A stretch of 64,000 nucleotides of DNA. Origin: Burkholderiales bacterium (lineage in GTDB: Bacteria > Pseudomonadota > Gammaproteobacteria > Burkholderiales > SG8-39). Below, piece by piece: positions 4,178-28,374 of this stretch; position 1 is the stretch's first letter, and each line of letters begins with the position of its first letter. The position numbers and the translations under genes are program-made. The stretch is from contig DATIDG010000034.1 in the NCBI GenBank assembly GCA_035456405.1, positions 22,151 to 86,150 of the forward strand, read 5' to 3'. The notes below the pieces were generated by a model. The model was not told the origin of the DNA and did no database searches. It was given only the letters and a program-made list of their open reading frames with translations.

Positions 4178-4180
4178 CCG

Positions 4181-4435: not shown

Positions 4436-4437
4436 CG

Positions 4438-5297: not shown

Positions 5298-5301
5298 TCG
5301 G

Positions 5302-6275: not shown

Positions 6276-6303
6276 TCTTGGTCTCCTTGTTTGAGGCACC
6301 GGG

Positions 6304-6333: not shown

Positions 6334-6372
6334 ACGCGCGCCGGAGCGGCGATCCTGCGCATCGATGACAAA

Positions 6373-6390
6373 GGGCGGCCGGAGCCGCCC
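6373..6390 (-). terminator. GC-rich hairpin after the six-haem cytochrome gene (weak terminator or attenuator)
   Basis: gggcggc-cgga-gccgccc. On the minus strand it is followed only by TTTG, so the U-tract is poor. Confidence 0.3.
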
Positions 6391-6412
6391 CTTCGCCCGC
6401 GTGCCCCCTGCG

Positions 6413-7618: not shown

Positions 7619-7786
7619 CGGTGATTCCCCTGTGAACGCGTGCGCGGCCAAGTTCACTCGCACGTCCGAAAGAAAGTACGCTGCAACCCGCCGTTCGGCC
7701 ATTGGCCGATCGACCGATATGCTACCTCTTCTGGCACGGATCCCGTTACACCGGCGACTTCCGGACCCCTGCGGGTACGGAAGGTG

Positions 7787-8383: not shown

Positions 8384-8408
8384 ACGGTGTGCATGCGGGT
8401 CGAGCTGC

Positions 8409-11580: not shown

Positions 11581-11618
11581 TCGAAGTTGTCCCAAGAACC
11601 CCGAACCGCCGCGCGGGA

Positions 11619-11690
11619 GGGGATATACAAGGGGCTCGCCCCTTGTTTGTGCATGGGGGACATACAAGGGGAGTCTCCCCTTGTTCGTAC
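11619..11690 (-). repeat. Two tandem copies of a ~35-bp unit, each with an 8-bp inverted repeat (acaagggg-N4/5-ccccttgt)
   Basis: Stems at 11627-11634/11639-11646 and 11664-11671/11677-11684. Flanks are also repeated (ggggaYatacaagggg...ccccttgttYgt). Lies in the only long gap (139 nt) of the ATPase operon, between atpE and atpA. Confidence 0.6.
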
Positions 11691-11719
11691 GAAGGGTTTG
11701 TTGTGATCGACGCGCAAAC

Positions 11720-12355
11720 TCATCTTCGAGATGACTCCTCTTGGTCTCCTGCTCCCTGCTCGAGATGGTGCAGCAGCTGCCCCTCGATCGCCTTGCGATC
11801 GGCGAGCAAACCCTCGAGCGTCGCGTCGAGCGTGTTATTGCCGGCGCGCACGCGGAACCCCGCGGCGAGGGTCGCGTCTTCCGCAAACGCGAGATCCGGG
11901 CCGCCGTGCGCGGCGAGCCAGCCCGCCGTCGCCTGGCGCTCGTCCGCGGCCCAGCCGGGCGCGTGCGCGATCTCCCACTCGGTGCGCGGCAGCGCCGCGA
12001 GGGCGCGCCCGAGATGCGTCTCTGCCCAGCGCCTGCGGCCCGCCGCATCGCGCCAGCGCGCTGCGAGCGCCGCCGGCAGCAGGCGCCAGCCCTCGGCGAG
12101 CATCGCCGCCTCGCGGCCCTGGTGCGCGAGGCGCTGGCGCGTGCGCAGATGCGCCTCCGCCCCGGCCACCGCGGCGTCGTAGCGCTTCCGCTCGTCGACG
12201 ATCGCCTCGTGCACGCGGCTCCGCGCGAGACGGAAGGCCTGCGCGACCAGTGCCCGTGCCTCGGCACGGGCCGCCGCGACGATCTCGCGCGACTTCGAGT
12301 CGCGGTACTCGTCGACGAGGGCGAGCAGGGCGCGGGCGCGCTCTTCGGTGTTCAT
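11720..12355 (-). CDS. atpE: V/A-type ATPase subunit E (peripheral stalk)
   Basis: 211 aa. N-terminal Ala/Arg coiled coil, then a globular C-terminus (GFRVRAGNNTLDATLEGLL). ATGA overlap with the subunit F stop. Confidence 0.7.
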   Translation of the reverse strand: MNTEERARALLALVDEYRDSKSREIVAAARAEARALVAQAFRLARSRVHEAIVDERKRYDAAVAGAEAHLRTRQRLAHQGREAAMLAEGWRLLPAALAARWRDAAGRRRWAETHLGRALAALPRTEWEIAHAPGWAADERQATAGWLAAHGGPDLAFAEDATLAAGFRVRAGNNTLDATLEGLLADRKAIEGQLLHHLEQGAGDQEESSRR

Positions 12356-12651
12356 CCCTCGAGCCCCAGCTGCCGTCGCACCCGCGCCGCAGGGTCAACC
12401 GGCGAAGCCCGACCGTCGAGGTCCGGCACGATCAGCACGAGCGGCGCCTGTGCGGCGATCGCCTGCTCGAGCCGCGCGAGCGGGATCTTCAGCGCGGTGT
12501 CCAGCGCGACCAGCACGACGCGCGCCTCGCCGCGGGCGCGCTCGAACGCCGCCGCTTCCTCGCCGGGCGGCGGGACGTGCACGGCGACCCCGGCGAGCCG
12601 GTACCCGCTCGCCATGATCGCGTCGCCGACGAATGCGATCGGGGAGGTCAT
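12352..12651 (-). CDS. atpF: V/A-type ATPase subunit F
   Basis: 99 aa starting MTSPIAFVGDAIMASGYRLAGV, then VVLVALDTA, the pattern typical of V-type F subunits. Confidence 0.75.
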   Translation of the reverse strand: MTSPIAFVGDAIMASGYRLAGVAVHVPPPGEEAAAFERARGEARVVLVALDTALKIPLARLEQAIAAQAPLVLIVPDLDGRASPVDPAARVRRQLGLEG

Positions 12652-12690
12652 GCGTCCGCTCTACGGAGCCTCCGATTGATGTCGTTCCAG

Positions 12691-13041
12691 TCAGCCCAGC
12701 CGGTTGAGAATCAGGATCGAGATGATCACGCCGTAGATCGCGATCCCTTCGGCGAGGCCGACGAAGATCAGCAGGCGACCGAGCAACTCGGGCTTCTCGG
12801 CCAGCGCGCCGACCGCAGCGGCGCCGAGCTTGCCGACCGCGAGGCCCGCGCCGAGCGAGGAGAGGCCCGTCGCGAGCGCGGCGGCGAGCAGACCCCAGCC
12901 AGCCGCGTCGCCGGTGAGCGCCGCCGCGGCGGCGGGTGCCTGGGCCGCGGCCGGTCCGGCCCAGAAGAGGAGGGCGGTGGCGCCGAGGCTCAGCGCGGCG
13001 GCGACCAGGGTCAGCGCGAGTGCGAACTTGATTCTTGGCAT
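12691..13041 (-). CDS. atpK: V/A-type ATPase proteolipid (K/c) subunit, single hairpin with an N-terminal signal-like helix
   Basis: 116 aa. MPRIKFALALTLVAAALSLGATALLFWAGPAAAQA, then a two-helix hairpin (GLSSLGAGLAVGKLG...FVGLAEGIAIYGVIISILIL) with the carboxylate Glu in helix 2. Confidence 0.85.
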   Translation of the reverse strand: MPRIKFALALTLVAAALSLGATALLFWAGPAAAQAPAAAAALTGDAAGWGLLAAALATGLSSLGAGLAVGKLGAAAVGALAEKPELLGRLLIFVGLAEGIAIYGVIISILILNRLG

Positions 13042-13043
13042 CG

Positions 13044-14852
13044 TTATTTCTCCGTGAGAGCGACGGGGGGCGGCAGCAGCGGCCGGAACTCGCGGCCCTC
13101 CGCCTGGAAGAAGCGGGCGAAAAACTCGAACAGCACGAGGCGCGTCGTCTGGATCGAGACGACCAGCCCCTCCAGCGCCAGGATGACGACATTCCCGAGC
13201 GCCAGTACGACGAGAAAGCCGAACGTTCCGCCGGCCGCGTCGGCGAGGGCAACCACGGCCGAGGACAGTCCCGCATGCGCGAGCGCGAACGCGCCCACAC
13301 GCGCGAACGAGAGCGTGTTGATCAGGATCTGCATTGCCCGCTCGACCAGTTCCCCGAGCGCTTTCAACGCCCCGATCGCGTGCCCCTCGGCGCGTGCGTG
13401 GCCGACCGCGAAGACGACTGCGCCTGCGAGCGCAACGAACGCCGAGGCCGGGCTCAGGAACAGTCCGAGGAGCCCCAAGTAGACGAGCACGAACCCGCCC
13501 TCGGTCGCGAGCCACTCGCCGAACTCGCCGCGCCACCAGGCCTCGAGCGCGCTCAGCACGAACCCGATCGCCAGGAAGACCACTCCGCCCAGGAGCGGCA
13601 CACCGAGCACCACGAGCGGCTCCTCGAGCGGATTGATCCAGAGCGGATGGATCAGATGCTCGACGCTGAAGACGCTGCCGAACGCGAGCCCGAAGACCGC
13701 TGCCGACAGCCCGGCGGGGATGAGGAGGCCGAGCACCGGCATGCGCTTGCGCAGCCAGAAGCCGGCGGCCGCGAGCACCAGCCCCTGGCCGACGTCGCCG
13801 AACATGTAGCCGAAGAGGAGCGGCACCGCGACCGCGAGCAGCTTGCTCGGGTCCGCGCCGTACTCACCGGGCATGCCGAAGAGCCGGCTGAAGATCTCGA
13901 ACGGCCGCGCCCACCAGGGATTGCGGAGCAGGAGTGGCGGGCGCACGCCCCGCGGCGGCTTCGGGAAGCTCGCGAGCGCGCGCGCGTCCGCGCGTTCGAT
14001 CGCCGCCGTCAGGCTCGGTGCATCGCTCGTCCAGCCGGTGATGCGCGAGAACACCTCGCCGCCTTCGATCGCGCCGACATTGTCGAAGCACCACGCCGCC
14101 CGCGCGACGTCGCCGAGGGCAGTGGGAACGTCGTGGCGCTCATCCAGGGCGGCGAGCTCGGCGCGCGCGGTCGCAGCGTCCCCGCTTCGAACCGCGCGGC
14201 GGTCCGCGATCAGCGCGAGATTCTCCTCGGCGCTTGGCCGCAGCCACTCCGGTACCTGCGCGCGGCGACCGTTCGCCGCCGCGACCTCCTGGCCGAGCGG
14301 CTCGATCGTCTCGGGAGCGCCGACCGCCAACAGGAATGTCTCCTCCTCGAAGTCGATCGGATGGAGCAGCACGCTCGAGGGCAGCGACAGCCGCGCCCCC
14401 TTCGGGTAGACGAACACGCACGCGACCACGCGGCCGCCCGGCTCGCCGATCGCCGAGAAATCGATCGGTGCGCCGCGCAGGCGCTCCATGACCCGCGCCA
14501 CGGTGTCGAGCTGCGCGATCTCGGACTCGGCGTCCTGCAGTCCCGCGATCACCCGGTCTGCCTCGGCCGACCAGGCATCGATGGTCGCGATCGCGGCCGC
14601 GAGCGCGTCGGCGGGCGCGACCCGCGTGGTCGCGCGCAGGCGCGCGGCCGGCCAGTACGCGCGATAGCGCCGCGACAGCACGCCGTACTCCCTGAGGAGA
14701 CGGTTGACCTGCGCGGCATCGTCCTGCTGGAGCGCGCCGCGCCGCCATTCGATCTCCACCGCGCCCGTCATGGCGAGCGCCTCGAGCGCGACGAACGCAT
14801 CGTCGCGCGCGACGAGGATCTCGAACCAGCGCGCCGCTTCAGGCCGGATCAC
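13044..14852 (-). CDS. atpI: V/A-type ATPase subunit I (a-type stator/proton path)
   Basis: 602 aa. GTG start overlaps the stop of the upstream gene. Soluble N-terminal half, then a multi-TM C-terminal half ending in SFARVGAFALAHAGL, the conserved Arg-containing helix. Confidence 0.85.
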   Translation of the reverse strand: MIRPEAARWFEILVARDDAFVALEALAMTGAVEIEWRRGALQQDDAAQVNRLLREYGVLSRRYRAYWPAARLRATTRVAPADALAAAIATIDAWSAEADRVIAGLQDAESEIAQLDTVARVMERLRGAPIDFSAIGEPGGRVVACVFVYPKGARLSLPSSVLLHPIDFEEETFLLAVGAPETIEPLGQEVAAANGRRAQVPEWLRPSAEENLALIADRRAVRSGDAATARAELAALDERHDVPTALGDVARAAWCFDNVGAIEGGEVFSRITGWTSDAPSLTAAIERADARALASFPKPPRGVRPPLLLRNPWWARPFEIFSRLFGMPGEYGADPSKLLAVAVPLLFGYMFGDVGQGLVLAAAGFWLRKRMPVLGLLIPAGLSAAVFGLAFGSVFSVEHLIHPLWINPLEEPLVVLGVPLLGGVVFLAIGFVLSALEAWWRGEFGEWLATEGGFVLVYLGLLGLFLSPASAFVALAGAVVFAVGHARAEGHAIGALKALGELVERAMQILINTLSFARVGAFALAHAGLSSAVVALADAAGGTFGFLVVLALGNVVILALEGLVVSIQTTRLVLFEFFARFFQAEGREFRPLLPPPVALTEK

Positions 14853-15649
14853 GGCAGCACCCCGAACGCCGCGCGCGTGACAAGCTGCGCGCGCAGCTTC
14901 TCGATGTCGAGCGCCACCAGGGCGATATAAGCGAAGGCTGCGACCGGCGTGAACGCATGGCGCCTGAAGCGCGCCGCGATCTGCGCCTCGAGGCCGCGGC
15001 GCATCGTCCAGGCGTCCTCCGAGCCGACATCGACGAACCGTGGCAGGTGCCGGAGCACGAGGCCCGCGAGCTCTTCGAGCGCTGCGGCGTCGTCGCCGCT
15101 GCGGTCGGGCCAACGATCGCGCCACTCCGCGAGCCAGACCTCGAGCGCGAGCGCATCGGCCGTGGCGGCGCGCAGGCCGTTCCCCTCGCCGAGTTGGGCC
15201 TCGATCGCGAGCACGACCGGCGCGAGCGGTCCGTTCCGCAGTGCCGCACGGCGTGCGTCGGCGTCCGCGTCCGCGTACTGCTGCAGCACCGGGTCACGAC
15301 GCATCCAGGGGGCCGGCGGCTCGCCGCGCGCGAGCCGGGTGACCGCCGGCAAGTCCACGAGATGCCCCGTCCAGTCCAGGGCGCGCTGCCACTCGCCGGA
15401 GACCCATGCGGCGACTTCGGCGATGGCCCCGCGGAGCTCGGTCCTCAGGCGCAGCTCGATCTCGTCCGCGTCGGCGTCGACGGGAATCGCGGCGACCCAG
15501 CGACGGAGCGGCGAGGCGCGCAGCGTCTCGAGCGCCGCAACCAGGCTGCGCGCGCTGCGGAGCTGGTTCCACAGCGACTCATCGCCACGCTGGCCGTAAC
15601 GGGACTGGAGGCGTGCCTGCGCGTATTCGAGCGGAAGTCCGCCGATCAT
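14849..15649 (-). CDS. atpC: Probable V/A-type ATPase subunit C (eukaryotic d / AC39-like)
   Basis: 266-aa all-helical protein in the position expected for subunit C. N-terminus YAQARLQSRYGQR...L...S is AC39-like. It is shorter and more divergent than typical members. Confidence 0.55.
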   Translation of the reverse strand: MIGGLPLEYAQARLQSRYGQRGDESLWNQLRSARSLVAALETLRASPLRRWVAAIPVDADADEIELRLRTELRGAIAEVAAWVSGEWQRALDWTGHLVDLPAVTRLARGEPPAPWMRRDPVLQQYADADADARRAALRNGPLAPVVLAIEAQLGEGNGLRAATADALALEVWLAEWRDRWPDRSGDDAAALEELAGLVLRHLPRFVDVGSEDAWTMRRGLEAQIAARFRRHAFTPVAAFAYIALVALDIEKLRAQLVTRAAFGVLP

Positions 15650-15749
15650 TCCCGCCGCCTCCGGTCGTCCATGGCCGACGGCGCACGGCCAGCCGAGGTC
15701 GCCGTTCTCGCATCCCTGGCAGAAAGCGCCGGGGCCCCCGCTCGGTAGC

Positions 15750-16106
15750 TCACTCGGCTGCTTCCTCCCCGATCAGCTCGTCGGCAAGCCGGTCGACCGC
15801 GCTCGCGAGGTTCGTTCGCGCAGCTTCGTCTTGTTCCGCCTGGGGGTCGGGCCCGACCGCCTCGGCGTCGATTGCGGCGAGCCGTGCGGCGCGCCGCTTA
15901 GCGGTGCTGGCGCGGATTGCGGATATGCGCGCGGCCGCGGTCTCCGCGATGCGCTTGTCGCGCGCGCGGGCGTCGGCGCGGATCCCGTCTGCGGTTTGCT
16001 GCGATGCCGCAACCTCGGCTCGCGCGCGGCGCTCGGCGTCGAGCACGCGCGCCATCGCGGCCTCGACTTCGCTGTCGTTGCGGGCTCCCTCCCTGGTCTG
16101 CGCCAT
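15750..16106 (-). CDS. Small Ala/Arg/Glu-rich coiled-coil protein, probable V/A-ATPase peripheral-stalk (G/H-like) subunit
   Basis: 118 aa from the ATG at 16106 (MAQTREGARNDSEVEAAMARVLDAERRARAEV...). First gene of the operon. Assignment rests on position and composition only. Confidence 0.45.
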   Translation of the reverse strand: MAQTREGARNDSEVEAAMARVLDAERRARAEVAASQQTADGIRADARARDKRIAETAAARISAIRASTAKRRAARLAAIDAEAVGPDPQAEQDEAARTNLASAVDRLADELIGEEAAE

Positions 16107-16184
16107 GTCTGTATCGCTTCTTTTGCAGTGCGGCGAAGGACCGGCCTCCCCGCCATTATTAGAGCCCGAGGGGCGCGAGCAGGG

Positions 16185-16198
16185 TTGACACCGGTCAA
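16185..16198 (-). promoter_or_regulatory. FNR/CRP-family (Anr/Dnr-type) box TTGAC-ACCG-GTCAA, upstream of the V/A-ATPase operon
   Basis: Perfect 5+5 inverted repeat. On the minus strand a TCTAAT/AATAAT -10-like element (16155-16163) sits about 30 nt downstream of the box centre, which fits class II (-41.5) geometry. Confidence 0.45.
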
Positions 16199-16353
16199 AT
16201 CGACCGCTCGCGGGCCGCGGCCCGCGGGTTGTCAACATTCGCGGCACGAAACCGTTAGTCCGGTTGCGCCGGCGGAGTGTCGCACGGCTCCGGCCGATTC
16301 ACTAAGATCGCCTTGCTTCCAACTCATTGAACCGCGCGCGGGAGAACCGCACG

Positions 16354-16650
16354 ATGCGCATGCTGGCCACCGCAATCGCTGCTACCGCGTTGGCTCTTGG
16401 CAGCCTGGCACACGCCCAGGTCGACGCCAAGAAAGGCGAGGCCGCGGCCAAGGAGGCGGGCTGCATGGCCTGCCATGCGATTGACAGCAAGAAGGTCGGG
16501 CCGTCTCTCAAGGAGACCGGCAAAAAGTACGCCGGCGCGGCCGAGAAGGTGATCGCCGCCATGAAGGCGAGCAAGGATCACGCCGACGCGGTCAAAGGCA
16601 CGAAGGACGCTGACCTCAAGCTGATCGCGTCCTGGATCGCGTCGATGTAA
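16354..16650 (+). CDS. Periplasmic monohaem class I cytochrome c, MtoD-like
   Basis: Signal peptide MRMLATAIAATALALGSLAHA. Single CMACH site. GPSLKE..KKY and a KDHAD His where c551-type proteins carry the Met loop. C-terminal LIASWI. Confidence 0.8.
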   Translation: MRMLATAIAATALALGSLAHAQVDAKKGEAAAKEAGCMACHAIDSKKVGPSLKETGKKYAGAAEKVIAAMKASKDHADAVKGTKDADLKLIASWIASM

Positions 16651-17074
16651 CGACCCGAGTTACACCGGTCGATTCGAACTGCCTTTGGGCCGGGCGCGTC
16701 GAGTGACCTGGGCTCCAATTCCAATCGCTTCGCGGATTGAGTTGCGTCCGCGCTACGAATGGCCGGTCAGTGTATTGACCGCGCGACAAGATCTGCGCTA
16801 CAAAGTGGCACGCAATAAGAACCGGATGCGGTACGAGAAGCGCACGAAGCCGGAGTGGAAGGTCGTCTGACGCGGCAGCTTCCCTCGGAGCGGGAACCGG
16901 CATTGGGGAGGACCGAGTGATGCAGTTGGTTACATGGACCCAGCGAGGTTACCTCGTGTCGATCGGGCGCCAGTCCGTCCTCGCCGCATCCGGCGGCCGC
17001 CACCAACGCCTGTCCGCGCCCCTGCGCTTCCTGCTGCGCTCACCCACCTCGCACTAACCACCAGGAGTCGGTAG

Positions 17075-17410
17075 ATGAAGCTCAAAGTCGTAGTCCCAGC
17101 CGCGCTGGTCGCGCTTGGGATGACCGGCGGCGCGTACGCCCAAGACGTCGACGCCGCTGCGGCGGAGGCCCTGATGAAGAAGAGCGGCTGCTTCAAGTGC
17201 CACTCGGTCAGTCAGAAGAAGGATGCCCCGCCGTACAAGGAGATCGCGGGCAAGTACAAGGCCAAGCCGGACGGCGAGAAGGCGCTGATGACCCACCTTA
17301 CGACGAATCCGAAGGTCAAGGTGGACGGCAAGGAAGAGGAGCACGACTCGCTCAAGACGAAGAACGAGGCGGACGTGCGCAACGTGGTGAAGTGGATTCT
17401 GACGCGGTGA
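17075..17410 (+). CDS. Periplasmic monohaem cytochrome c, MtoD-like (paralogue 1)
   Basis: Signal peptide ending AYA-QD. Single CFKCH site, then KDAPPYKEIAGKYK, KEEEHD and VKWILTR. Confidence 0.85.
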   Translation: MKLKVVVPAALVALGMTGGAYAQDVDAAAAEALMKKSGCFKCHSVSQKKDAPPYKEIAGKYKAKPDGEKALMTHLTTNPKVKVDGKEEEHDSLKTKNEADVRNVVKWILTR

Positions 17411-17420
17411 AGGCAGAGAG

Positions 17421-17765
17421 ATGAACACGATTCGCTTGATGCTGGTATCGGGGCTCGCGGTCGGGACCTGGATGGGCCTGGCGCCGGTCGCGATGGGGCA
17501 GGCCGACGACGCCGCAGCGGAGGCCCTGGCGAGAAAGAGCGGGTGCCTCAAGTGTCATTCCGTGACGCAGAAGAAGGACGCTCCCTCCTACAAAGAGATC
17601 GCGGCCAAATACAAAGGTCAGGCGGACGCCGAGAAGAAGCTCGTCGCTTTCGTCTCCACGGGCTCCAAGATCAAGATCGACGGTAAGGAAGAGGAGCACG
17701 ATGTCCTAAAGACGAAAAACGAGGCCGAGGCCCGCAACGTGGCCCGATGGATCCTGACACGCTGA
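17421..17765 (+). CDS. Periplasmic monohaem cytochrome c, MtoD-like (paralogue 2, tandem duplicate)
   Basis: About two-thirds identical by eye to 17075-17410: CLKCH, KDAPSYKEIAAKYK, KEEEHD, ARWILTR. Starts 10 nt after the previous gene. Confidence 0.85.
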   Translation: MNTIRLMLVSGLAVGTWMGLAPVAMGQADDAAAEALARKSGCLKCHSVTQKKDAPSYKEIAAKYKGQADAEKKLVAFVSTGSKIKIDGKEEEHDVLKTKNEAEARNVARWILTR

Positions 17766-17792
17766 CCGGCTACGGCCCTAGGGGGAGGGAGG

Positions 17793-18401
17793 GTGTTCAA
17801 GAAGACGTGGGAGTGGCTGGGCGGTCAGTGCCGCACCTGTTCCCGCATCCGGCTCGCGGTCGGGATCGTCCTGGCGACGGTGCTGTTCGGGGCCGTGTTC
17901 ATGGTCGCTGGCGCGGGCGCGCTCGCGTGGACCAACACCGAGAACTTCTGCATCGGCTGCCACGAGATGCGCGACAACGTGTACGCGGAGTTCAAGGGCA
18001 CGATCCACGACAAGAACCGGACTGGCGTACGCGCGATCTGCTCCGACTGCCACGTGCCGCGGGAGCCGGGGCCGCTGGTCTTGAGAAAGATGCGGGCGAC
18101 CTTCGAGCTCTGGGGTCACTTCACCGGAGTGGTCGACAGCAAGGAGAAGTTCGAGCAGCATCGCTACGAGCTGGCCAGGCGGGTCTGGGTGCGGATGAAG
18201 GAGACCGACTCGCTCGAGTGCCGCAATTGCCACAAGTACGACTCCATGGACGCCGACGTGCAGTCGGACAAGGCGAAAGCCCGCCACGCGAAGGGCAAGG
18301 CCGAGGGCCTGACGTGCATCGATTGCCATTTCGGCATCGCGCACAAGGAGCCGGAAGGCGGACCTGGCCCGAGGGAACTCAAGGTCGGGAGCAGCAAGTG
18401 A
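17793..18401 (+). CDS. cymA: NapC/NirT-family membrane tetrahaem cytochrome, CymA-like quinol/quinone oxidoreductase
   Basis: GTG start and N-terminal TM helix. Haem sites CIGCH(EM), CSDCH, CRNCH and CIDCH. Paralogue of 5619-6275. Confidence 0.9.
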   Translation: MFKKTWEWLGGQCRTCSRIRLAVGIVLATVLFGAVFMVAGAGALAWTNTENFCIGCHEMRDNVYAEFKGTIHDKNRTGVRAICSDCHVPREPGPLVLRKMRATFELWGHFTGVVDSKEKFEQHRYELARRVWVRMKETDSLECRNCHKYDSMDADVQSDKAKARHAKGKAEGLTCIDCHFGIAHKEPEGGPGPRELKVGSSK

Positions 18402-18483
18402 GCTTTGCGACGGGGACCGTTACAGCGGCGCGGCGCCGGAGTTCCGGGTGTTGCGCCCACGCGACATTTTTGTTGCTCGGCTA

Positions 18484-18512
18484 TTGACGCCAGGAACCAC
18501 GTTGGGCGTAAT
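18484..18512 (+). promoter_or_regulatory. Candidate sigma-70 promoter for the decahaem/porin gene pair
   Basis: TTGACG, a 17-nt spacer, then CGTAAT, within the 306-nt gap between the cymA-like and mtoA-like genes. Confidence 0.3.
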
Positions 18513-18707
18513 GCCCGAGTAGAAGATTAAGTGGTCGCAGCGCGAATGCAATCGCGTGCAAGCGACCCTCGCAGCGATCACTAGGCTGCGCGAACGGCGC
18601 GCGGTGGTACCGCGCAACTGCGCCGAAACGGAGGGAAAGGACTCCGGCCCGGCGCCGCAGCGACCGTTCGGGGCGATGGTGCTGCAGTTCCGGCATAGGG
18701 GGAGTCC

Positions 18708-19700
18708 ATGCGTTTTAGCCATTCGATCGCCACCGCGCTCGCGGGCGGCGCGGCCTTGTTGTGCGCTCAACTTGCCTTCGCCCAGCAGCCCGCGGATGCG
18801 AAACCGCCGCGAGCGGACCTGGTCCTCACCGGCGACGCGAAGTGCACGCGTTGCCACAACGAGGAGGACTCGCCCCAGCTCCTCGCCATCGGGCAGACCC
18901 GCCACGGCACGAAAGCCGATGGCCGCACGCCCACCTGCACGAACTGCCACGGCGAGAGCGAGAACCACATCCAGAAGCCGTCGGGCGCGAAGGAGCGGCC
19001 CCAGCCGGATCGCACGTTCGGCAAGTCGTCGACCACGCCGATGGCCGAGCGCAGCGCGGCCTGCCTCACCTGCCACCAGGGCGGCAATCGCATCGCCTTC
19101 CAGGCAAGCGTGCACGCGAACCGCGACGTCGCCTGCAGCTCCTGCCACAAGATCCACAGCGCGCGCGACGCCGTGCGGGACACCGGACCCCAGGCGAGCC
19201 GCGATTCGGCGCGGGACGTGCGGACGCAGACCGACGTCTGCTTCACCTGCCACAAGGAGCAGCGCGCGCAGGTCAACCGGCCCGTGCACCACCCGATCAT
19301 CGAAGGCAAGATGACCTGCTCGTCGTGCCACAACGTGCACGGCGACAACCCGGCCCAGCTCGTGAGGGACAGCGTCAACGAGACCTGCTTCACGTGCCAC
19401 ATGGAGAAGCGCGGGCCGTTCCTGCACAACCACGCGCCGGTGCAGGAAAACTGCGCCATCTGCCACCAGCCGCACGGCACGGTCATCGCCAACCTCCTGA
19501 AGGCGCGGCCGCCGTTCCTCTGCCAGGAGTGCCACAGCCACACGAGCCATCCGAGCCAGGCGGCGGGCCTGCCAACGGGCCGGACGACCTCGACTTCGCT
19601 CCTCGGCACCGTCGCGCGGGGCTGCCCGAACTGCCACATCAACATCCACGGCAGCAACAGCTCGCAGAACAGCGCGACCGCCGGACGCTTCCGTCGCTGA
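18708..19700 (+). CDS. mtoA: Periplasmic decahaem cytochrome c of the MtrA/PioA/MtoA family
   Basis: Signal peptide ending AFA-QQ. Exactly ten CXXCH sites in 330 aa: CTRCH, CTNCH, CLTCH, CSSCH, CFTCH, CSSCH, CFTCH, CAICH, CQECH, CPNCH. Confidence 0.9.
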   Translation: MRFSHSIATALAGGAALLCAQLAFAQQPADAKPPRADLVLTGDAKCTRCHNEEDSPQLLAIGQTRHGTKADGRTPTCTNCHGESENHIQKPSGAKERPQPDRTFGKSSTTPMAERSAACLTCHQGGNRIAFQASVHANRDVACSSCHKIHSARDAVRDTGPQASRDSARDVRTQTDVCFTCHKEQRAQVNRPVHHPIIEGKMTCSSCHNVHGDNPAQLVRDSVNETCFTCHMEKRGPFLHNHAPVQENCAICHQPHGTVIANLLKARPPFLCQECHSHTSHPSQAAGLPTGRTTSTSLLGTVARGCPNCHINIHGSNSSQNSATAGRFRR

Positions 19701-19722
19701 CCGGGACTGGGGGACAGCCATC

Positions 19723-21903
19723 ATGTTCACGAACAAGCAGACGCTCAGGCTGACGACGCTTGCGGCCGCGCTGACGTGCGCCTTCGGGCCTGCTCTGGCC
19801 CAGGACGAAACCGTCACCCAGCTCACCAAGCCGAACAGCTGGTTCTCGATCGGCGCGGGGTGGTGGTCGGACGACCGCCCGCAGGAAGGTATCTACGACG
19901 GGATGAACCAGAAGGGCTGGTACGGTCTCTTCGATGCATTCATCAACAAGCGCGACGAGGCGACCGGGACGTGGTACTCGCTGGACGCTCGGAACGTCGG
20001 CCTCGACACCCGCGACATCCGCGCCGACTGGCTGCGCCAGGGGAACATCGGCGCCTTCGTCCAGTTCAGCCAGACGCCGCGCGACAATCCGTACACCTTC
20101 CACACCGGGTTGCGCGGCATCGGCACCACGAACCAGGTCGTAAGCGGCGCAGGCGCCAACGCGCTGCCTTTTGGCGATTATCACTTGGGCACGCGTCGCG
20201 ACCTCTGGAACGTCGGTGGGTACAAGAATCTGATTCCAGGTCTCGACCTCAAGATCAACTACAAGCACGAGGACAAGACCGGGAACCGGCAATGGGGGCG
20301 CGGCGGCGCGCCGGAGTTCGCGGTCGAGCCCATCGACACCACGACGCAGCAGGCCGAGGTGCTGCTGAACTACATGCGCGACAACCTGCAGCTCTCGGGC
20401 GGCTGGTACGGCTCCTGGTGGAACCAGAACACCAGCGGCCTCGTCGACACGACGCTGAACGGCGGGACCGCGGCAAACCGGTTCTTCCTGACCCTGCCCC
20501 TCGACAATCAGGCGCAGCAGTTCTTCCTGAACGGCGGCTACAACTTCACGCCCACCACGCGCGGGACGTTCAAGCTTTCCTACACGCACGCGACCCAGAA
20601 CGAGAACCTGCCAACGCAGAGTATCCCCGGCCTGTCCCTCGCCGGGACCCCGCAGAGCCTCGATGGCGAGATCAATACGACCCTGGCGCAGCTGGGAGTC
20701 ACATCGAGACCCACGCCGAACTTCTCCTGGCTCGCGAACCTGCGGTACTACAACGCGGAAGAGAAGACCCCTCAGAACCGCTGGGTGCAGACTGGCGCGC
20801 TGCCCTGCGCAACCGGGTCGTCCTCGAACATCCCGCCCGGGACGACCGGGGCCACCTGCGTGGACAACACGCCGCTGGGGTTCGAGACGTGGTCCGGGAA
20901 GCTGGAGGGGACCTACCGGCTGCCGATGGGGTTCAGCCTGATCGGGGGGATCGATTACGCCGACCAGGACCGCATCGTGCCCGTGGGCATCGCGACCGTG
21001 GGCGTCGACGGCGTCGACCGGCAACGCTACGTCCCGTTCAAGTCGCAACTCGACGAGACGACCTACCGCCTGCAAGTGCGCCGCGGACTCTCGGAAACGA
21101 TCAACGGGTCGCTCGCCTATCTCTACAGCCGGCGTAGCGGGTCGGGCTACACGCTGACCAACGAAAACGAATCGGACGAGATTAACCCGATCCACATCGC
21201 GAAGCGCGATCGCAACCGGTGGCGCGTGATGCTCGACTGGACGCCGCTCGAGGCGCTGACCTTTACGCTCAACTACGAGAACGCGCAAGACAAGTACGAC
21301 ACCACTTCGGATCGGCCGTACGCGCTCACGAAGGGCACCGGACAGGTCTTCTCGTTGGATGCCTCGTACGCCATCAGCGACCTGTGGAAAGTGAACGCGT
21401 GGTATTCCTGGGATAACCAGAAGGCGGAGCAGTTCACGCAGCGGGCCGCAAACAGCGGGGCGGGTGCAGCCGAGAAGGACTCGGATCTCGAGGACACCGG
21501 CAACACGCTGGGGCTCGGTCTGCGCGGCGTCGTCATGCCCAAGGTGCGCGTCGGCGCCGACGTGCTCTACGCCAAGCAGAACAGCAAGTACCCGGAGACC
21601 ATCACGCTGACGGGTCCCGGTGCGGTGTTCCCGACCGCGGCCGGCGTCACCGTCGCGCCGCTGCAGGACATCGAAAACAGGTTGACGCGATTCAAGCTGT
21701 TCGCGGCGTACGAGCTGCACAAGAATGCCGAGCTGTTTATCGATTACATCTGGGAGGAGTGGAAGACCGACGACTGGAGCTGGCAGTTCGCCAACGGCTC
21801 GACGTTCACCTACGGCACGACGACCGACGGCACCCAGGTGACGCAGGCCCCGAAGCAGACGTCGAACTTCATCGGCGTCCGGTACATATACAGGTTCCAA
21901 TAG
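19723..21903 (+). CDS. mtoB: Outer-membrane beta-barrel porin of the MtrB/PioB/MtoB family
   Basis: 726 aa with a signal peptide ending ALA-QD. Rich in alternating aromatic/Gly/Asn/Thr/Tyr strands. C-terminal FIGVRYIYRFQ barrel signature. Starts 22 nt after the decahaem gene. Confidence 0.85.
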   Translation: MFTNKQTLRLTTLAAALTCAFGPALAQDETVTQLTKPNSWFSIGAGWWSDDRPQEGIYDGMNQKGWYGLFDAFINKRDEATGTWYSLDARNVGLDTRDIRADWLRQGNIGAFVQFSQTPRDNPYTFHTGLRGIGTTNQVVSGAGANALPFGDYHLGTRRDLWNVGGYKNLIPGLDLKINYKHEDKTGNRQWGRGGAPEFAVEPIDTTTQQAEVLLNYMRDNLQLSGGWYGSWWNQNTSGLVDTTLNGGTAANRFFLTLPLDNQAQQFFLNGGYNFTPTTRGTFKLSYTHATQNENLPTQSIPGLSLAGTPQSLDGEINTTLAQLGVTSRPTPNFSWLANLRYYNAEEKTPQNRWVQTGALPCATGSSSNIPPGTTGATCVDNTPLGFETWSGKLEGTYRLPMGFSLIGGIDYADQDRIVPVGIATVGVDGVDRQRYVPFKSQLDETTYRLQVRRGLSETINGSLAYLYSRRSGSGYTLTNENESDEINPIHIAKRDRNRWRVMLDWTPLEALTFTLNYENAQDKYDTTSDRPYALTKGTGQVFSLDASYAISDLWKVNAWYSWDNQKAEQFTQRAANSGAGAAEKDSDLEDTGNTLGLGLRGVVMPKVRVGADVLYAKQNSKYPETITLTGPGAVFPTAAGVTVAPLQDIENRLTRFKLFAAYELHKNAELFIDYIWEEWKTDDWSWQFANGSTFTYGTTTDGTQVTQAPKQTSNFIGVRYIYRFQ

Positions 21904-21938
21904 CCGGCGCTCGCAAGCGCGTGAACGGCAGAGCGAAC

Positions 21939-21963
21939 GGGGCGGCGCGAGCCGCCCCTTTTT
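21939..21963 (+). terminator. Rho-independent terminator after the porin gene
   Basis: ggggcggc-gcga-gccgcccc followed by TTTTT. Confidence 0.75.
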
Positions 21964-22239
21964 CGTTGTTGGGCACGCTCGCGCTAGGAGTCGAGCCGCG
22001 GTACGCGTGGCGGATCCCAACGGTGTCGGCAAGCCGAACCTCCAGCGTCAGTCACCTGAACTCGGTCAACTGACGCCTGAGTAGGGACCAGCGGACCCGA
22101 GATCGACACATGCGCGGCGTGCGGAGCGCTGGGCGTGGTCCGGGTCCCCGGGGTTGAGGACTCCGGCACCGACCTCGGCAATTCGCTGCGATGCACGAAG
22201 GCTGGCGCGTCGCCGCGTCGCGATCTTCTGCGTCCCCCA

Positions 22240-22253
22240 TTGATTCTGGTCAA
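22240..22253 (+). promoter_or_regulatory. FNR/CRP-family (Anr/Dnr-type) box TTGAT-TCTG-GTCAA, upstream of the dihaem c5 fusion gene
   Basis: Near-consensus box 80 nt upstream of the ATG at 22333. A weak -10-like ACTAAT at 22279-22284 is about 3 nt off ideal class II spacing. Confidence 0.45.
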
Positions 22254-22332
22254 GACGTGAAACGCAGAAAAGGCAGCTACTAATCTCCACTCGCGTGAAG
22301 CGTTTCGCGGAAGTTGGGCGGGAGGTGCTGCC

Positions 22333-23415
22333 ATGTGCACGATGAACAGTGAGCCTACTGGGGGGGCATCCTCGGCGCTCACGATATCGAAGCGGCTGCT
22401 TGCGACGGTCATCGTTGCCGTGGTCGTGCCTATCGTTCAGCACGAAGCGCAAGCCCAGGCGAGCGCCAGGAGCGGCAAGGAAGTGGTCGATGCGGTGTGC
22501 GCGGCCTGTCACGGCACCGGCGCACAAGGCGCGCCGAAGATCGGTGACAGACAGGCGTGGGGCCCGCGCGCCTCGCAAGGCCTCAGCGCCCTAACGCAAC
22601 ACGCGATCCACGGCATCCGGCAGATGCCGGCGCACGGCGGGAATCCATCGGTCACCGACTTCGAGATCGCGCGCGCCGTGACGTATATGGTCAACCAGTC
22701 GGGCGGCGCGTGGGCCGAGCCGATCGACAAGACCGTCCCATCCGCCGAGCGAAGCGGAGAACAGGTGGTGCAGGCGCAGTGTGCGCAGTGCCACCGAACG
22801 GGCGAGGGCGGCGCGCCCAAGATCGGCGATCGCGCCGCTTGGACGCCGCGACTCCGGCAAGGACTCGATGTCGCCGTTCGCTCCGCGATCCGGGGACATG
22901 GGGGGATGCCTGCACGGGGCGGCCTGGCCGATCTCACTGATGCCGAGGTCCGCAGCGCGGTGATTTATATGTTCAACCCAGTGAGCGCGGCGGCGAAGGG
23001 TCCGGCGGCGGTCCCGGCGGTCCCTGCGGCGAATCGGAGGGCGGTCGGCGGCGTGGAGGTGTATCTGGGGGTCGTCGCGGCGGAATCGCTGCGCGCCCAG
23101 CACCCGAAGGCGGACGCAGAGGCCTTGATGCACGGGGGCATCCCGCGCGGCAGAGACTACTACCACGTGAACCTCACGCTGATCGACAGCGCGACGAAGG
23201 CCGAGATCGCGGACGCGCAAGTCGAGGTGACAGTCGAGGATCCGGTCATGGGCGGCGAAACGAAAAAGCTCGAGCTCATGGCGATCGAGAACAGGATCAG
23301 CTACGGTCAATATTTCCGGATGCCGGGGAAGGATCCCTACTCGATTACCGTGCGGATCCAGAGGCCCGGGGCCCCGCCGGCGGTGAGCACCAAGTTCAGC
23401 TTCAAGCACGGCTGA
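22333..23415 (+). CDS. Dihaem cytochrome c5-type protein fused to a C-terminal beta-sandwich (YtkA/FixH/P19-like) domain
   Basis: RBS GGGAGGTG, then an N-terminal anchor or signal peptide. Two c5 repeats (CAACHGTGAQGAPKIGDRQAW...MPAHGG and CAQCHRTGEGGAPKIGDRAAW...MPARGG) and a Pro/Ala linker. A ~125-aa domain follows (VYLGVV..HGG..YYHVNLTLID..AQVEVTVEDPVMGG..YGQYFRMPG..YSITVRIQRPG). Confidence 0.8.
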   Translation: MCTMNSEPTGGASSALTISKRLLATVIVAVVVPIVQHEAQAQASARSGKEVVDAVCAACHGTGAQGAPKIGDRQAWGPRASQGLSALTQHAIHGIRQMPAHGGNPSVTDFEIARAVTYMVNQSGGAWAEPIDKTVPSAERSGEQVVQAQCAQCHRTGEGGAPKIGDRAAWTPRLRQGLDVAVRSAIRGHGGMPARGGLADLTDAEVRSAVIYMFNPVSAAAKGPAAVPAVPAANRRAVGGVEVYLGVVAAESLRAQHPKADAEALMHGGIPRGRDYYHVNLTLIDSATKAEIADAQVEVTVEDPVMGGETKKLELMAIENRISYGQYFRMPGKDPYSITVRIQRPGAPPAVSTKFSFKHG

Positions 23416-23668
23416 GGGTCTGCGGCTTCGGGCGCACCTCGCCCTCGGGGGCGAGGGCCGCGAACGCATATGGGCGCGCGGCCCTGGAGCGTGCGCCCGT
23501 GGCGGTGCTGTGCGCTCGCTGAGCCCGACTCTTGCCGGTACACAATCCGGCTCGGGCGACTACGCCTCCGGGCGCGGGCCCTTGTGGGCCGCCTCCGGGT
23601 CGCTTACCCTTCGCGCCTCCGTCGCCAACAAGAATCTGCGGCGCCGCGCCGGCCGCTGCCCCCTTCTC

Positions 23669-24310
23669 ATGCTCGAAGCCCTCGATCTCGAATGCACCCG
23701 CGGCGAGCGCGTGCTGTTCAGCGGGCTCGCCGTACGCATCGAGCCGGGCACGCTGCTGCGTGTGGCGGGACCAAACGGCACCGGGAAGACGAGCCTGCTG
23801 CGCCTGCTGTGCGGGCTGCTGCAGCCGACGCACGGCGAGATTCGCTGGCGGGGCGAGGGGGTCCGCTCCCTCCGCGAGGAGTACTGGCGCGAGCTCGCGT
23901 ACGTCGGCCACCTGAACGGGGTCAAGGACGACCTGACCGCAGCCGAGAATCTGCGGGCGTCGGCCGGGATCGCCGGACTCGAGGCCGACGAAGGCGCGCT
24001 GCGCGGAGCGCTCGATGCGGTCGGGCTCGCGGGCTTCGAGGACTCGCTCACGCGTTCTCTGTCGCAGGGGCAAAAGCGCCGCATCGCGCTCGCGCGGCTG
24101 TTCCTGAGCGGCGGCGTGCCGCTCTGGATCCTGGACGAGCCCTTCACCGCGCTCGACGCGCGCGGCGTCGCGGCGCTGGGGACGCTGCTCGCGCGCCATC
24201 TCGCGGGCGGCAACATCGTAGTCTTCACCACCCACCAGGAAGTGCCGATCGATGCGGAACGCACCGAGACGATCGAGCTCGGCCGCGGGATGGGGCAGCC
24301 GTCGTGCTGA
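23669..24310 (+). CDS. ccmA: Haem exporter ATP-binding protein CcmA
   Basis: Walker A GPNGTGKTS, signature LSQGQKRR, Walker B LWILDEP. Confidence 0.9.
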   Translation: MLEALDLECTRGERVLFSGLAVRIEPGTLLRVAGPNGTGKTSLLRLLCGLLQPTHGEIRWRGEGVRSLREEYWRELAYVGHLNGVKDDLTAAENLRASAGIAGLEADEGALRGALDAVGLAGFEDSLTRSLSQGQKRRIALARLFLSGGVPLWILDEPFTALDARGVAALGTLLARHLAGGNIVVFTTHQEVPIDAERTETIELGRGMGQPSC

Positions 24311-24963
24311 AGACCCTTGCCGCGGTCGTCCGCCGCGACCTGCTGCTCGCCATCCGGCAGCGCGCGGACGTGGCGAACACGCTGCTCTTCTTCGTCGTGG
24401 TGGTGACGATGGTGCCGCTCGGCGTGGGCGCGGAGCCGAACCTGCTGCGCTCGATCGCGCCGGGCGTGGTGTGGGTCGCCGCGCTGCTCGCCGCGATCCT
24501 GTCGCTCAACCGCCTCTTCGCCGCGGACTTCGCAGACGGCACGCTGGAGCAGATGCTGATCTCCGCGGAGCCCTTGCCGCTGATCGTGCTCGGCAAGACC
24601 GCGGCGCACTGGCTCGTCACCGGCGTGCCGGTCACCGTCATCGCGGTCGTGCTCGGGATCATGTTCGACCTCGGCGTCGAGGCCACGGCGATCCTGATGG
24701 CCTCGCTCGCGCTCGGCACGCCGGTCCTTTCGCTGATCGGCGCGGTAGGCGCGGCCCTGACGCTCGGGCTGAGGGGGGGCGGCGTGCTAGTATCGCTGCT
24801 CGTTTTGCCCCTGTACGTGCCCGTGCTGATCCTCGGCGCGGGGGCGGTCGCGGCGGGGCTCGGCGCGGCTCCGTATCTGCTGCTCCTCGGGGCGCTCGCG
24901 CTGTTCGCCGTGGTTCTCACGCCTTGGGCCGTCTCGGCGGCATTGCGCATCTCGGTAGAGTGA
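24304..24963 (+). CDS. ccmB: Haem exporter membrane protein CcmB
   Basis: GTG overlaps the end of ccmA. Six-TM protein with FADGTLEQM and LVLPLYVPVLI motifs. Confidence 0.9.
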   Translation: MLKTLAAVVRRDLLLAIRQRADVANTLLFFVVVVTMVPLGVGAEPNLLRSIAPGVVWVAALLAAILSLNRLFAADFADGTLEQMLISAEPLPLIVLGKTAAHWLVTGVPVTVIAVVLGIMFDLGVEATAILMASLALGTPVLSLIGAVGAALTLGLRGGGVLVSLLVLPLYVPVLILGAGAVAAGLGAAPYLLLLGALALFAVVLTPWAVSAALRISVE

Positions 24964-25002
24964 ACTGACTTGCAGACGAAGGTGCTCGTGGTCGGCGGCG
25001 GC

Positions 25003-25728
25003 GTGTGGAAGTACGCCGCGCCGAACCTGTTCTACCCGCTCGCCGGGAAGCTGATCCCGTGGTTCGCTATCGCGGCGACGGCGCTGTGCGCCATCGGGCT
25101 CTACATCGGGTTCTTCGTCGCGCCGACCGACGCGCAGCAGGGCGAGTCCTACCGGATCATCTTCATCCACGTGGCGGCGGCATGGATGTCAATGTTCCTC
25201 TACCTTGTCATGGCATTCTGGGCCGGCGTCGGCCTCGCGCTCAACACCCGGCTGTCGTCGATGATGGCGACCGCGATCGCGCCGACCGGCGCCATCATGA
25301 CTTTCGTCGCGTTGTGGAGCGGCGCGCTGTGGGGCCGGCCCACCTGGGGCACCTACTGGGTGTGGGACGCGCGGCTGACCTCCGAGCTGATCCTGCTGTT
25401 CCTGTATCTCGGCTTCATTGCGCTCCAGGCCGCGATCGACGATCCGCGCCGGGCGGACAAGGCGGGAGCGGTGTTGGCACTGGTCGGGGTGGTGAACGTC
25501 CCGATCATCTATTTCTCGGTCAAATGGTGGAACACCCTTCACCAGGGCGCCTCGGTGAGCCTCACCAAGGCGCCGACCATGGCTTCGACGATGCTCACCG
25601 GGATGCTGGTCATGGCGCTCGGGCTCTGGATGTACTCGATCGCAATCACCCTGGCGCGGGTACGGGCAATCATCCTCGAGCGCGAACGCCGTTCCGACTG
25701 GATCAAGGAACTGCCGGAGCGCGCCTGA
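25003..25728 (+). CDS. ccmC: Haem exporter/haem handling protein CcmC
   Basis: GTG at 25003 gives (M)WKYAAPNLFYPLAGKLIPWF, which aligns with the E. coli CcmC N-terminus. Trp-rich motif WGRPTWGTYWVWDARLTSE. The track start TTG at 24970 is an alternative. Confidence 0.9.
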   Translation: MWKYAAPNLFYPLAGKLIPWFAIAATALCAIGLYIGFFVAPTDAQQGESYRIIFIHVAAAWMSMFLYLVMAFWAGVGLALNTRLSSMMATAIAPTGAIMTFVALWSGALWGRPTWGTYWVWDARLTSELILLFLYLGFIALQAAIDDPRRADKAGAVLALVGVVNVPIIYFSVKWWNTLHQGASVSLTKAPTMASTMLTGMLVMALGLWMYSIAITLARVRAIILERERRSDWIKELPERA

Positions 25729-25729
25729 T

Positions 25730-25924
25730 ATGGTCTGGGGCGGCTGGGATAATTTCTGGGCGATGGGCGGGTATGCGCCATTCGTATGGGGTTCGTACGG
25801 CGTGACGGTCGCCGCACTGGCCTTGGAGATCTGGCTCGTCAGGGCGCGGTGGCGCCGGGCCCTGGCGGAGGCCGCGCGGATTCGGAAGCGGGGCAGGGAA
25901 AGCGGAATGAGACCAGCGGAATGA
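25730..25924 (+). CDS. ccmD: Haem exporter protein CcmD
   Basis: 64 aa with the [16 protein letters not shown] motif and a single TM helix. Confidence 0.8.
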
Positions 25925-26370
25925 AACCGAGGCACAAGCGTGCGTTGCTGATCGGAATCGGGCTCGTCATCCTGGCGGGCGCGGTGACGCTCGTGCTCAC
26001 GGCGTTCCAGCAGAACCTGGTGTTCTTCTTCACGCCGTCGCAGGTGGCGGCGAACGAGGCGCCGGTCGGCAAGCCGTTCCGCATCGGCGGCATGGTGGAG
26101 ACGGGCAGCCTCAAGCGCGGCGGCGACGGGCTGACGGTGCAGTTCAAGGTGACCGACACGGCGAAATCCGTCCAGGTCAAGTACACCGGCATCCTCCCCG
26201 ACCTCTTCAGGGAGGGGAAGGGCGTGGTCGCGCAGGGACGGCTCGGGCCCGACGGCGTGTTCCAGGCAACCGAGGTGCTCGCGAAGCACGACGAGAACTA
26301 CATGCCGCCCGAGGCGGCGCACGCGCTGGAGCAGGGCGCCAAGGCGCAGAAGACGATCAGGACCAATTGA
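25921..26370 (+). CDS. ccmE: Haem chaperone CcmE
   Basis: ATGA overlap with ccmD. N-terminal anchor, [12 protein letters not shown], and the haem-binding AKHDENYMP motif. Confidence 0.9.
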
Positions 26371-26380
26371 GGTTGCGACC

Positions 26381-28363: not shown

Positions 28364-28374
28364 AGGACCGCACC

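Follow-up and report, generated by a model that had tools for sequence, protein, structure and literature searches.

A 64,000-nucleotide stretch of a Burkholderiales genome (GenBank assembly GCA_035456405.1, contig DATIDG010000034.1, positions 22,151 to 86,150 of the forward strand; hereafter the window) carries a run of cytochrome c genes around a gene pair for a decahaem cytochrome, MtoA, and an outer-membrane porin, MtoB. Our analysis suggests that this region probably encodes a complete Mto-type porin-cytochrome pathway, laid out as a composite locus, with electron uptake slightly favoured as its direction. As sequence and structural model indicate, MtoA would form a ten-haem wire inside the 26-strand barrel of MtoB and carry electrons across the outer membrane. 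Three small monohaem cytochromes, termed here c1, c2 and c3, would act as periplasmic electron carriers, a NapC/NirT-family tetrahaem protein would be their link to the quinone pool, and a dihaem cytochrome of c5 type would provide a plausible branch to a high-potential terminal oxidase or reductase. As has been proposed for Sideroxydans MtoAB, the electrons would enter from outside the cell, their source being Fe(II), Fe(II) minerals or some other reduced solid. The locus would be composite in that c1 and both the promoter and the signal peptide of mtoA would stem from a resident divergent system, and mature MtoA together with MtoB from a canonical Mto cluster. The genes concerned are:

16354-16650, plus strand: c1, a short class I monohaem cytochrome c of 98 aa with the haem motif CMACH and the sequence KDHAD, 424 nt 5' of c2
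17075-17410, plus strand: c2, an MtoD homologue of 111 aa with the haem motif CFKCH and the putative distal His in KEEEHD
17421-17765, plus strand: c3, a second MtoD homologue of 114 aa with the haem motif CLKCH and KEEEHD, 10 nt from c2
17793-18401, plus strand: NapC/NirT-family tetrahaem inner-membrane cytochrome (CymA/ImoA-like), GTG start, 202 aa, four CXXCH motifs
18708-19700, plus strand: MtoA-type periplasmic decahaem cytochrome c, 330 aa, ten CXXCH motifs, 24 His
19723-21903, plus strand: MtoB-type outer-membrane porin, 726 aa, C-terminus ...FIGVRYIYRFQ, 22 nt 3' of mtoA
22333-23415, plus strand: dihaem cytochrome, 360 aa, two c5/c555-type domains followed by a 123-aa C-terminal domain

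According to the motif count and the list of open reading frames (ORFs), all seven haem and porin ORFs are intact and lie on the plus strand, with successive intergenic gaps from c1 to the dihaem gene of 424, 10, 27, 306, 22 and 429 nt. The c2, c3 and napC genes are therefore closely packed (10 and 27 nt), and mtoA and mtoB likewise (22 nt). The GC content at third codon positions (GC3) of the cluster genes, 0.81-0.93, is like that of neighbouring genes. An earlier note on this DNA had described a 330-aa protein with ten CXXCH sites, a 726-aa porin 22 nt later, a NapC/NirT protein with a membrane anchor and three monohaem cytochromes, and all the features that it listed were found where it had placed them.

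The decahaem protein scored 250.9 bits against TIGR03508 (curated cut-off 192.2) and matched MtrA of the Shewanella MtrCAB structure (PDB 6R2Q, 6r2q_A) at E 3.3e-54 and 42.5% identity, with ten out of ten haem motifs aligned. Its distance to MtrA matches that of Sideroxydans MtoA, which is 42-44% identical to Shewanella MtrA (PMC3274759). The signal sequence terminates AFA-QQ, the first CXXCH stands at residue 46, 14 His lie outside the ten haem motifs, and the motif count found no CX3CH or CX4CH variant in the protein. At E <= 1e-20, MtoA has 2,712 homologues; its relatives take in Gallionellaceae, Dechloromonas and Nitrosomonas, the best among species representatives of the GTDB being those of the Burkholderiales metagenome-assembled genomes (MAGs) L004-L006, at 71% identity.

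Two further observations concern the decahaem sequences themselves. Between haem motifs 4 and 5 (residues ~151-176, window 19158-19235), MtoA contains about 12 inserted residues with a repeat inside them (RDAVRDTGPQASRDSARDVRTQ). A 94% identical relative, P0001, has this insertion too, and the canonical proteins P0003, P0004 and P0007 lack it. In addition, the decahaem protein P0002, from an ENA/JGI contig of 1571 bp, is identical to P0001 over its first ~210 residues and belongs to another decahaem type over the rest; either recombination in nature or a chimeric metagenome assembly produced it.

The porin matched PF11854 (MtrB_PioB) over the full span of the model at E 8.9e-125 and 418 bits (cut-off 23), and TIGR03509 at 285 bits (cut-off 240). 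An AlphaFold2 (AF2) model built from a 50-sequence alignment, with a mean pLDDT of 83.2 and a pTM of 0.74, shows 26 strands of at least 8 residues, in line with the large barrel of about 26 strands by which the earlier note had proposed to judge this protein. When the model was compared with the PDB by Foldseek, MtrB (6r2q_B) was recovered at E 1.5e-35 with TM-scores of 0.78/0.86, and the next matches, 22-strand TonB-dependent transporters, reached E ~1e-9 and TM < 0.4. Sequence identity to MtrB is 20%, and a phmmer search of MtoB against PDB sequences gave no match, so that the kinship of the two porins shows by profile and fold alone. The MtrB of metal-reducing Gammaproteobacteria (Shewanella type) carries an N-terminal CXXC motif. 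MtoB has no CXXC, its only Cys being at positions 19 (in the signal peptide), 362 and 379, and in this it resembles the porins of iron oxidisers, the comparison that the earlier note had suggested.

Six-frame inspection of the whole 64 kb revealed no ORF with at least 10 CXXCH motifs other than MtoA, and hence no MtrC. Pfam scans found no DmsA-type molybdopterin oxidoreductase among the ORFs scanned across the window and, in the neighbourhood scans, no high-potential iron-sulfur protein (HiPIP, the type of PioC) among those scanned. Because CXXC, MtrC, a DmsA-type enzyme and a HiPIP are all lacking, we assign the pair to the two-component MtoAB/PioAB type; its size fits MtoA and not PioA, since the N-terminal extension of the latter is missing. 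DmsEF, MtrCAB and PioABC were each considered as identities for the pair and ruled out, their partner genes not having been found in these scans. Together with the scores above the cut-offs of TIGR03508, PF11854 and TIGR03509, and with the match of c2 to MtoD described below, these results bear out the Mto/Mtr-type conduit that had been proposed.

We then considered the three monohaem cytochromes, which the earlier note had treated as three MtoD-like proteins and as an unusual triplicated shuttle. The c2 protein matched the MtoD structure (PDB 4XXL, 4xxl_A) at E 2.3e-21 and 43% identity, whereas His/Met proteins of the c551/c552 kind were worse matches by 15 orders of magnitude; c3 is 45% identical to MtoD. 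Both contain the MtoD hairpin loop T-x-x-x-K-x-K-x-x-D-G-x-E-E-E-H, and the His of their KEEEHD aligns to His95 of MtoD, which is the distal haem ligand according to the structure paper (PMC4412085). All 62 MtoD-like proteins taken from related loci have this His. Met is lacking altogether from mature c3, and in c1 and c2 no Met is conserved across the respective family. As had been estimated, c2 and c3 are about two-thirds identical (61% over the full length, 69% over the mature domain), and the corresponding DNA repeat, D1/D3, is 78% identical.

The c1 protein is different. It shares just 30-34% identity with c2, c3 and MtoD, lacks the 12-13-residue beta-hairpin loop that bears the distal ligand in MtoD, and is closer to c551 in its N-terminal half; it matched PF00034 at E 8.9e-07. 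Its His76, in KDHAD, is invariant in the c1 family, where Leu usually stands in place of a nearby Met and of the C-terminal one, and a profile of the family places His76 on His95 of MtoD (4xxl, E 1e-13). An exhaustive search of 1.84 billion representative proteins returned 31 clusters at E <= 1e-10, the 100-aa members of which retain the His76 equivalent. The conserved His noted earlier in all three proteins thus holds up on alignment, and c1, c2 and c3 are all predicted to be bis-His ligated. However, since its loop is deleted and its identity so low, c1 is MtoD-like in its predicted ligand and yet belongs to a distinct short family; only c2 and c3 qualify as true MtoD homologues.

The relation between c2 and c3 was examined through identities and a neighbour-joining tree. 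In the related contig L084, which also has two copies, c2 of the window pairs with the first copy (85% over the mature domain) and c3 with the second (74%), and c3 branches outside the clade formed by the single-copy MtoDs that precede napC in other genomes. Because each has its own counterpart in L084 and c3 falls outside that clade, c2 and c3 are old paralogues and not recent copies. A recent triplication of MtoD was ruled out by identity values, tree and synteny. Among 80 representative genomes (species-representative genomes carrying an MtoA relative), a tandem MtoD pair occurs in L007 only, where it arose independently, and a c1-type gene within 8 kb occurs in none. The set of three monohaem cytochromes is therefore as unusual as had been supposed, but the word "triplicated" is wrong: c1 is loop-less, distant in sequence and, as described below, resident.

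The NapC-type protein matched PF03264 at E 8e-64 and has an N-terminal hydrophobic transmembrane helix (RLAVGIVLATVLFGAVFMVAGAGALAW) within a hydrophobic stretch at residues 20-46. Its first haem motif, CIGCHEM at residues 53-59, is of the CXXCHxM form, which belongs to the feature list of CymA/ImoA and occurs in NrfH, CymA and the protein of Sideroxydans lithotrophicus ES-1 (PMC10654088). No nap or nir genes were found near the gene. Given this, and a TIGR02161 score below the cut-off, the protein is a relative and no NapC or NirT equivalog, and is best labelled "CymA/ImoA-like". It is 87.6% identical to its orthologue in L084.

Next, we asked how far this gene order recurs elsewhere. Contig L096 contains c2-c3-napC-mtoA, with an MtoA identical to that of the window; L094 and JGI 3300043331 contain c1-c2-c3-napC-mtoA-mtoB at 94% identity; the independent metagenome contigs L001-L003 cover the stretch from mtoA through mtoB to the dihaem gene; and JGI samples 3300043331 and 3300056388 have a matching gene order. 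The architecture is maintained at 92-94% protein identity in other samples. As independent metagenome contigs show the same order, it is not an assembly artefact. The lineage of the window occurs in soil and farmland metagenomes, and the order mtoD-napC-mtoA-mtoB is found in 21 of the 80 representative genomes. At the level of nucleic acid signals, an Rfam scan of 15500-24000 returned no RNA family at E <= 1, a sigma-70 promoter scan no promoter-like site, and folding of the 424-nt spacer between c1 and c2 a z-score of +0.93, i.e. no structure signal.

Comparison with contigs carrying c1 homologues points to the origin of the locus. These contigs share a frame consisting of a V-type ATPase operon on the minus strand, c1 and a cytochrome c maturation (ccm) operon, and the slot between c1 and ccm varies in content. 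It is empty in L085 and L086, with c1 directly before ccmA in L085; it holds a decahaem and a porin gene in L089, L091 and JGI 3300067032, L090 and L092 being partial; in L087 a dihaem gene is added to these two; and in L084 it holds c2-c3-napC-decahaem-porin-dihaem (slot coordinates L085:8001-12066, L089:3560-12859, L087:8001-14111 and L084:8001-16300). In most relatives c1 lies immediately 5' of the decahaem gene. Because the V-ATPase-c1-ccm frame is constant while the content of the slot varies, c1 is a resident gene of the lineage, located between the V-ATPase and ccm operons.

In L084, L087, L089 and L091 the pair is deeply divergent (L084:10157-13402, L087:8576-11860): identity to the window is no more than 38-40% for the decahaem protein and 21-26% for the porin, and the divergent porin scored 149 bits against TIGR03509, under the cut-off of 240. 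By contrast, the NapC and dihaem proteins that flank the pair in L084 are 88% and 84% identical to those of the window. Loci of the window type and of the divergent type occur together in one sample, JGI 3300039396 (L096 and L092). At the DNA level, the window and L084 are 90-93% identical over the V-ATPase operon, 76% over 17144-18785 and 83% from 22240 on, with essentially no alignment across 18786-22240. The left homology break falls directly after the ...AFAQ codons, that is, at the predicted signal-peptidase site of MtoA, and the segment on its upstream side can be described as follows:

18560-18785, plus strand: conserved upstream region and mtoA signal-peptide codons, shared with the divergent decahaem gene of relatives; putative left junction of the swap

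Consistent with this, the MtoA signal peptide of the window (MRFSHSIATALAGGAALLCAQLAFAQ) is like those of the divergent decahaem proteins of L084, L089 and L091 and unlike those of the canonical MtoA proteins of L004-L018. As the break spans mature mtoA and mtoB and the signal peptide is of the divergent type, the simplest reading is that the canonical mature mtoA and mtoB replaced a resident pair, whose promoter and signal peptide would have been retained. Such a swap agrees with published work in which Mtr clusters evolve as modules and by horizontal transfer (PMC8805035). A broader proposal, which we put forward tentatively and regard as possible though doubtful, is that porin-cytochrome pairs are exchangeable cassettes in a single slot that may be empty, hold the divergent pair or hold canonical MtoAB, with a junction at the signal-peptidase site. 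The three His-ligated cytochromes would then serve as potential-tuned adaptors, linking different outer-membrane modules to shared inner-membrane partners, with the NapC-type protein leading to quinone and the c5-type dihaem protein to an oxidase.

Among characterised systems, the closest parallel is the slit_2494-2498 cluster of S. lithotrophicus ES-1 (MtoAB-MtoD-CymA(ImoA)-PmcA), of which MtoA, MtoB, ImoA and PmcA were compared by published description. Both encode a decahaem protein of ~320-330 aa with ten CXXCH motifs and 14 further His, and a porin of the MtrB/PioB family that exceeds Shewanella MtrB in length by ~70-110 aa. Both also have a NapC/NirT tetrahaem protein and at least two monohaem cytochromes, among them an MtoD homologue of bis-His type (at 43-45% identity, with His95 retained), and both lack MtrC. 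The order in ES-1 is mtoD-mtoA-mtoB-imoA-pmcA, whereas in the window it is mtoD-mtoD-napC-mtoA-mtoB. The window also differs in having two MtoD paralogues and the short loop-less c1 but no His/Met protein like PmcA (Slit_2494), in the c5-type dihaem gene and ccm operon downstream, and in the apparently foreign promoter and signal peptide of mtoA.

Clusters of uncultured Burkholderiales and other Betaproteobacteria (L004-L010, L018, L044 and others) have mtoD-napC-mtoA-mtoB in the order and orientation of the window, with identities of 65-71% for MtoA, 49-62% for MtoB, 64-70% for NapC and 58-70% for MtoD, and several of them also precede ccmABCDEF. In contrast to the window, they have a single MtoD (the L007 tandem excepted), neither c1 nor the dihaem gene, and MtoA signal peptides of their own. 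Compared with Shewanella MtrCAB (6R2Q), the haem motifs of MtoA are collinear and the MtoB model superposes on MtrB (TM-score 0.78/0.86), but the window has no MtrC, its porin has no CXXC and the identity to MtrB is as low as 20%. PioABC is, like the window, a two-component decahaem/porin conduit devoid of a surface cytochrome; it differs in the ~200-aa N-terminal extension of PioA, against a decahaem of 330 aa here, and in the HiPIP PioC, which was not found among the scanned ORFs.

Downstream of mtoB, two features frame the dihaem gene:

21939-21968, plus strand: intrinsic-terminator-like hairpin of 8 G-C pairs followed by TTTTT, 36 nt 3' of the mtoB stop, a consensus match only
23510-28363, plus strand: start of a System I cytochrome c maturation operon, ccmA, ccmB, ccmC, ccmD, ccmE and ccmF (Pfam ABC_tran, Cytochrom_C_asm, CcmE, CcmF_C)

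The hairpin falls within the segment that has no homology to L084. The dihaem protein matched PF13442 at E 1.9e-30, PDB 4j20 at E 8.6e-21 and 2zon_G at E 2.5e-16, as well as 8smr_L (cytochrome c5). Cytochromes of the c5/c555/c551 type are electron donors to cbb3 oxidase or nitrite reductase. The C-terminal 123 aa gave no significant Pfam family, with sub-threshold matches to Iron_transport/P19 (Fe2+ transport; E 0.067) and YtkA (Ig-like; E 0.078). Orthologues of the dihaem gene are found in L084 (84% identical) and L087 (77%), and the gene is absent in L085, L089 and L091. Because a strong terminator-like hairpin intervenes, we can only infer that this gene is tied to the conduit. The ccm operon as a whole (window 23510-30592) adjoins mtoAB, an arrangement that recurs in 16 of the 80 related genome loci (including L004, L005, L020, L044, L059, L081 and L082) and on the contig of the homologue P0003, which suggests a recurrent mto-ccm linkage.

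Electron uptake is, in our estimate, the likeliest direction, if by little better than an even call. It is slightly favoured because MtrC and the porin CXXC are missing and because MtoD-type carriers are high-potential in the one case measured, MtoD at +155 mV (PMC4412085). Mto clusters of Dechloromonas aromatica and Gallionellaceae have likewise been discussed as Fe(II)-oxidation candidates (PMC5566968).

Several points weigh against a complete uptake pathway. The first is that the direction of electron flow is not readable from sequence, as the earlier note had stated and as the literature agrees: no clade of MtoA and PioA is specific to one function, mtoD is found next to mtrCAB as well, and MtrCAB is reversible (PMC8805035). 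A second concerns the carriers. The earlier note had taken the shuttle role of MtoD as established, but this is no longer settled, since in a 2026 study of Sideroxydans ES-1 MtoD (+155 mV) interacted with neither MtoA nor ImoA, and PmcA (His/Met, -143 mV) interacted with both (PMC13390432). Judged by Met conservation in c1-c3, the cluster contains no PmcA-like cytochrome with a conserved distal Met. Furthermore, the bis-His prediction for the three small cytochromes draws on conservation only, and the AF2 model of c1 (pLDDT 73.8) found no significant match, the best Foldseek E being 0.096, probably due to the signal peptide being modelled as a long helix. The NapC-type protein reached 226.1 bits against TIGR02161, under the cut-off of 310.6, and the terminator-like hairpin after mtoB suggests that the dihaem gene is a separate transcription unit. 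Finally, Pfam scans revealed no autotrophy or oxidase genes elsewhere in the window, but heterotrophic functions instead, which give no guide to the direction.

This heterotrophic genomic context would suit an outward conduit, in which the CymA-like protein oxidises quinol and the small cytochromes pass electrons to MtoA and on to extracellular Fe(III), Mn(IV), humics or an anode, no MtrC being involved. MtoA is as near to MtrA (42.5%) as is ES-1 MtoA (42-44%), and a Shewanella mtrA mutant is complemented in part by ES-1 mtoA (PMC3274759); ImoA can substitute for CymA as quinol oxidase in Shewanella (PMC13390432), and a CXXCHxM first motif is typical of the quinol-oxidising NrfH and CymA. On the other hand, the 64 kb contain no surface cytochrome of the MtrC/OmcA type, the porin has no N-terminal CXXC as in the MtrB of metal reducers, and the high potential of the MtoD type (+155 mV in one case, PMC4412085) fits a protein that accepts electrons downhill better than one that donates them to MtoA. 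We regard outward transfer as rather unlikely.

A substrate other than iron seems improbable. Candidates would be Mn(II) oxidation, humic or quinone shuttles, interspecies exchange or a DmsEF-like extracellular terminal reductase. MtrAB-type modules do serve DMSO reduction (DmsEF), mtrCAB is expressed during Mn(II)-dependent growth of Ramlibacter (PMC8805035), the lineage comes from soil and farmland metagenomes, and the two different porin-cytochrome pairs in the same slot of close relatives could be substrate-specific variants; yet the window has no DmsAB-like or other extracellular reductase gene, and the characterised two-component members, MtoAB and PioAB, act on iron. Lastly, that the cluster is a recombination relic, unexpressed or not working as a unit, is very improbable: mtoA is chimeric, the gap between napC and mtoA measures 306 nt and relatives vary in content, some loci being conduit-free, but all seven ORFs are intact, their GC3 (0.81-0.93) resembles that of the neighbours, haem motifs and distal His are all conserved, and other samples retain the architecture with proteins 92-94% identical.

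The surroundings of the cluster hold a number of further genes. The V-type ATPase operon, in what looks like a betaproteobacterial genome, occupies 7787-16247 on the minus strand, with another minus-strand block, 5619-7702, at its 3' end. There, a hexahaem protein of 429 aa with a cytochrome c554 domain has no close NCBIfam family, and beside it is encoded a second NapC/NirT-like protein whose haem motifs are CGEACH (CX3CH) and then three CXXCH. This V-ATPase/hexahaem block is partly deleted in L085. Upstream of it, at 2427-5613 on the plus strand, lie a DUF190 gene and genes for the molybdenum cofactor, among them mobB and one of ThiS/MoaD-like type, a set that is also present in L085. Farther away, 35593-36888 on the minus strand encodes a Ser/Thr protein kinase fused to a cyclic-nucleotide-binding domain, adjoining a LysR regulator and clpB, and 55853-57092 on the minus strand two tandem AlgH-like (DUF179) paralogues.

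Mto clusters as such are common among betaproteobacterial genomes, and many betaproteobacterial MAGs have one in the same order. What sets this one apart is the presence of three distinct His-type cytochromes and the apparent cassette swap at a signal-peptide junction. The location of two MtoD paralogues directly 5' of the NapC-type gene bears on the debate as to whether MtoD partners ImoA/CymA (PMC13390432). The near-isogenic loci with no conduit, with a divergent conduit or with canonical MtoAB constitute a natural comparison set for the roles of porin-cytochrome pairs and small cytochromes. On the strength of the cluster, this uncultured soil betaproteobacterium of high GC content is a candidate for extracellular electron exchange with iron minerals or electrodes.

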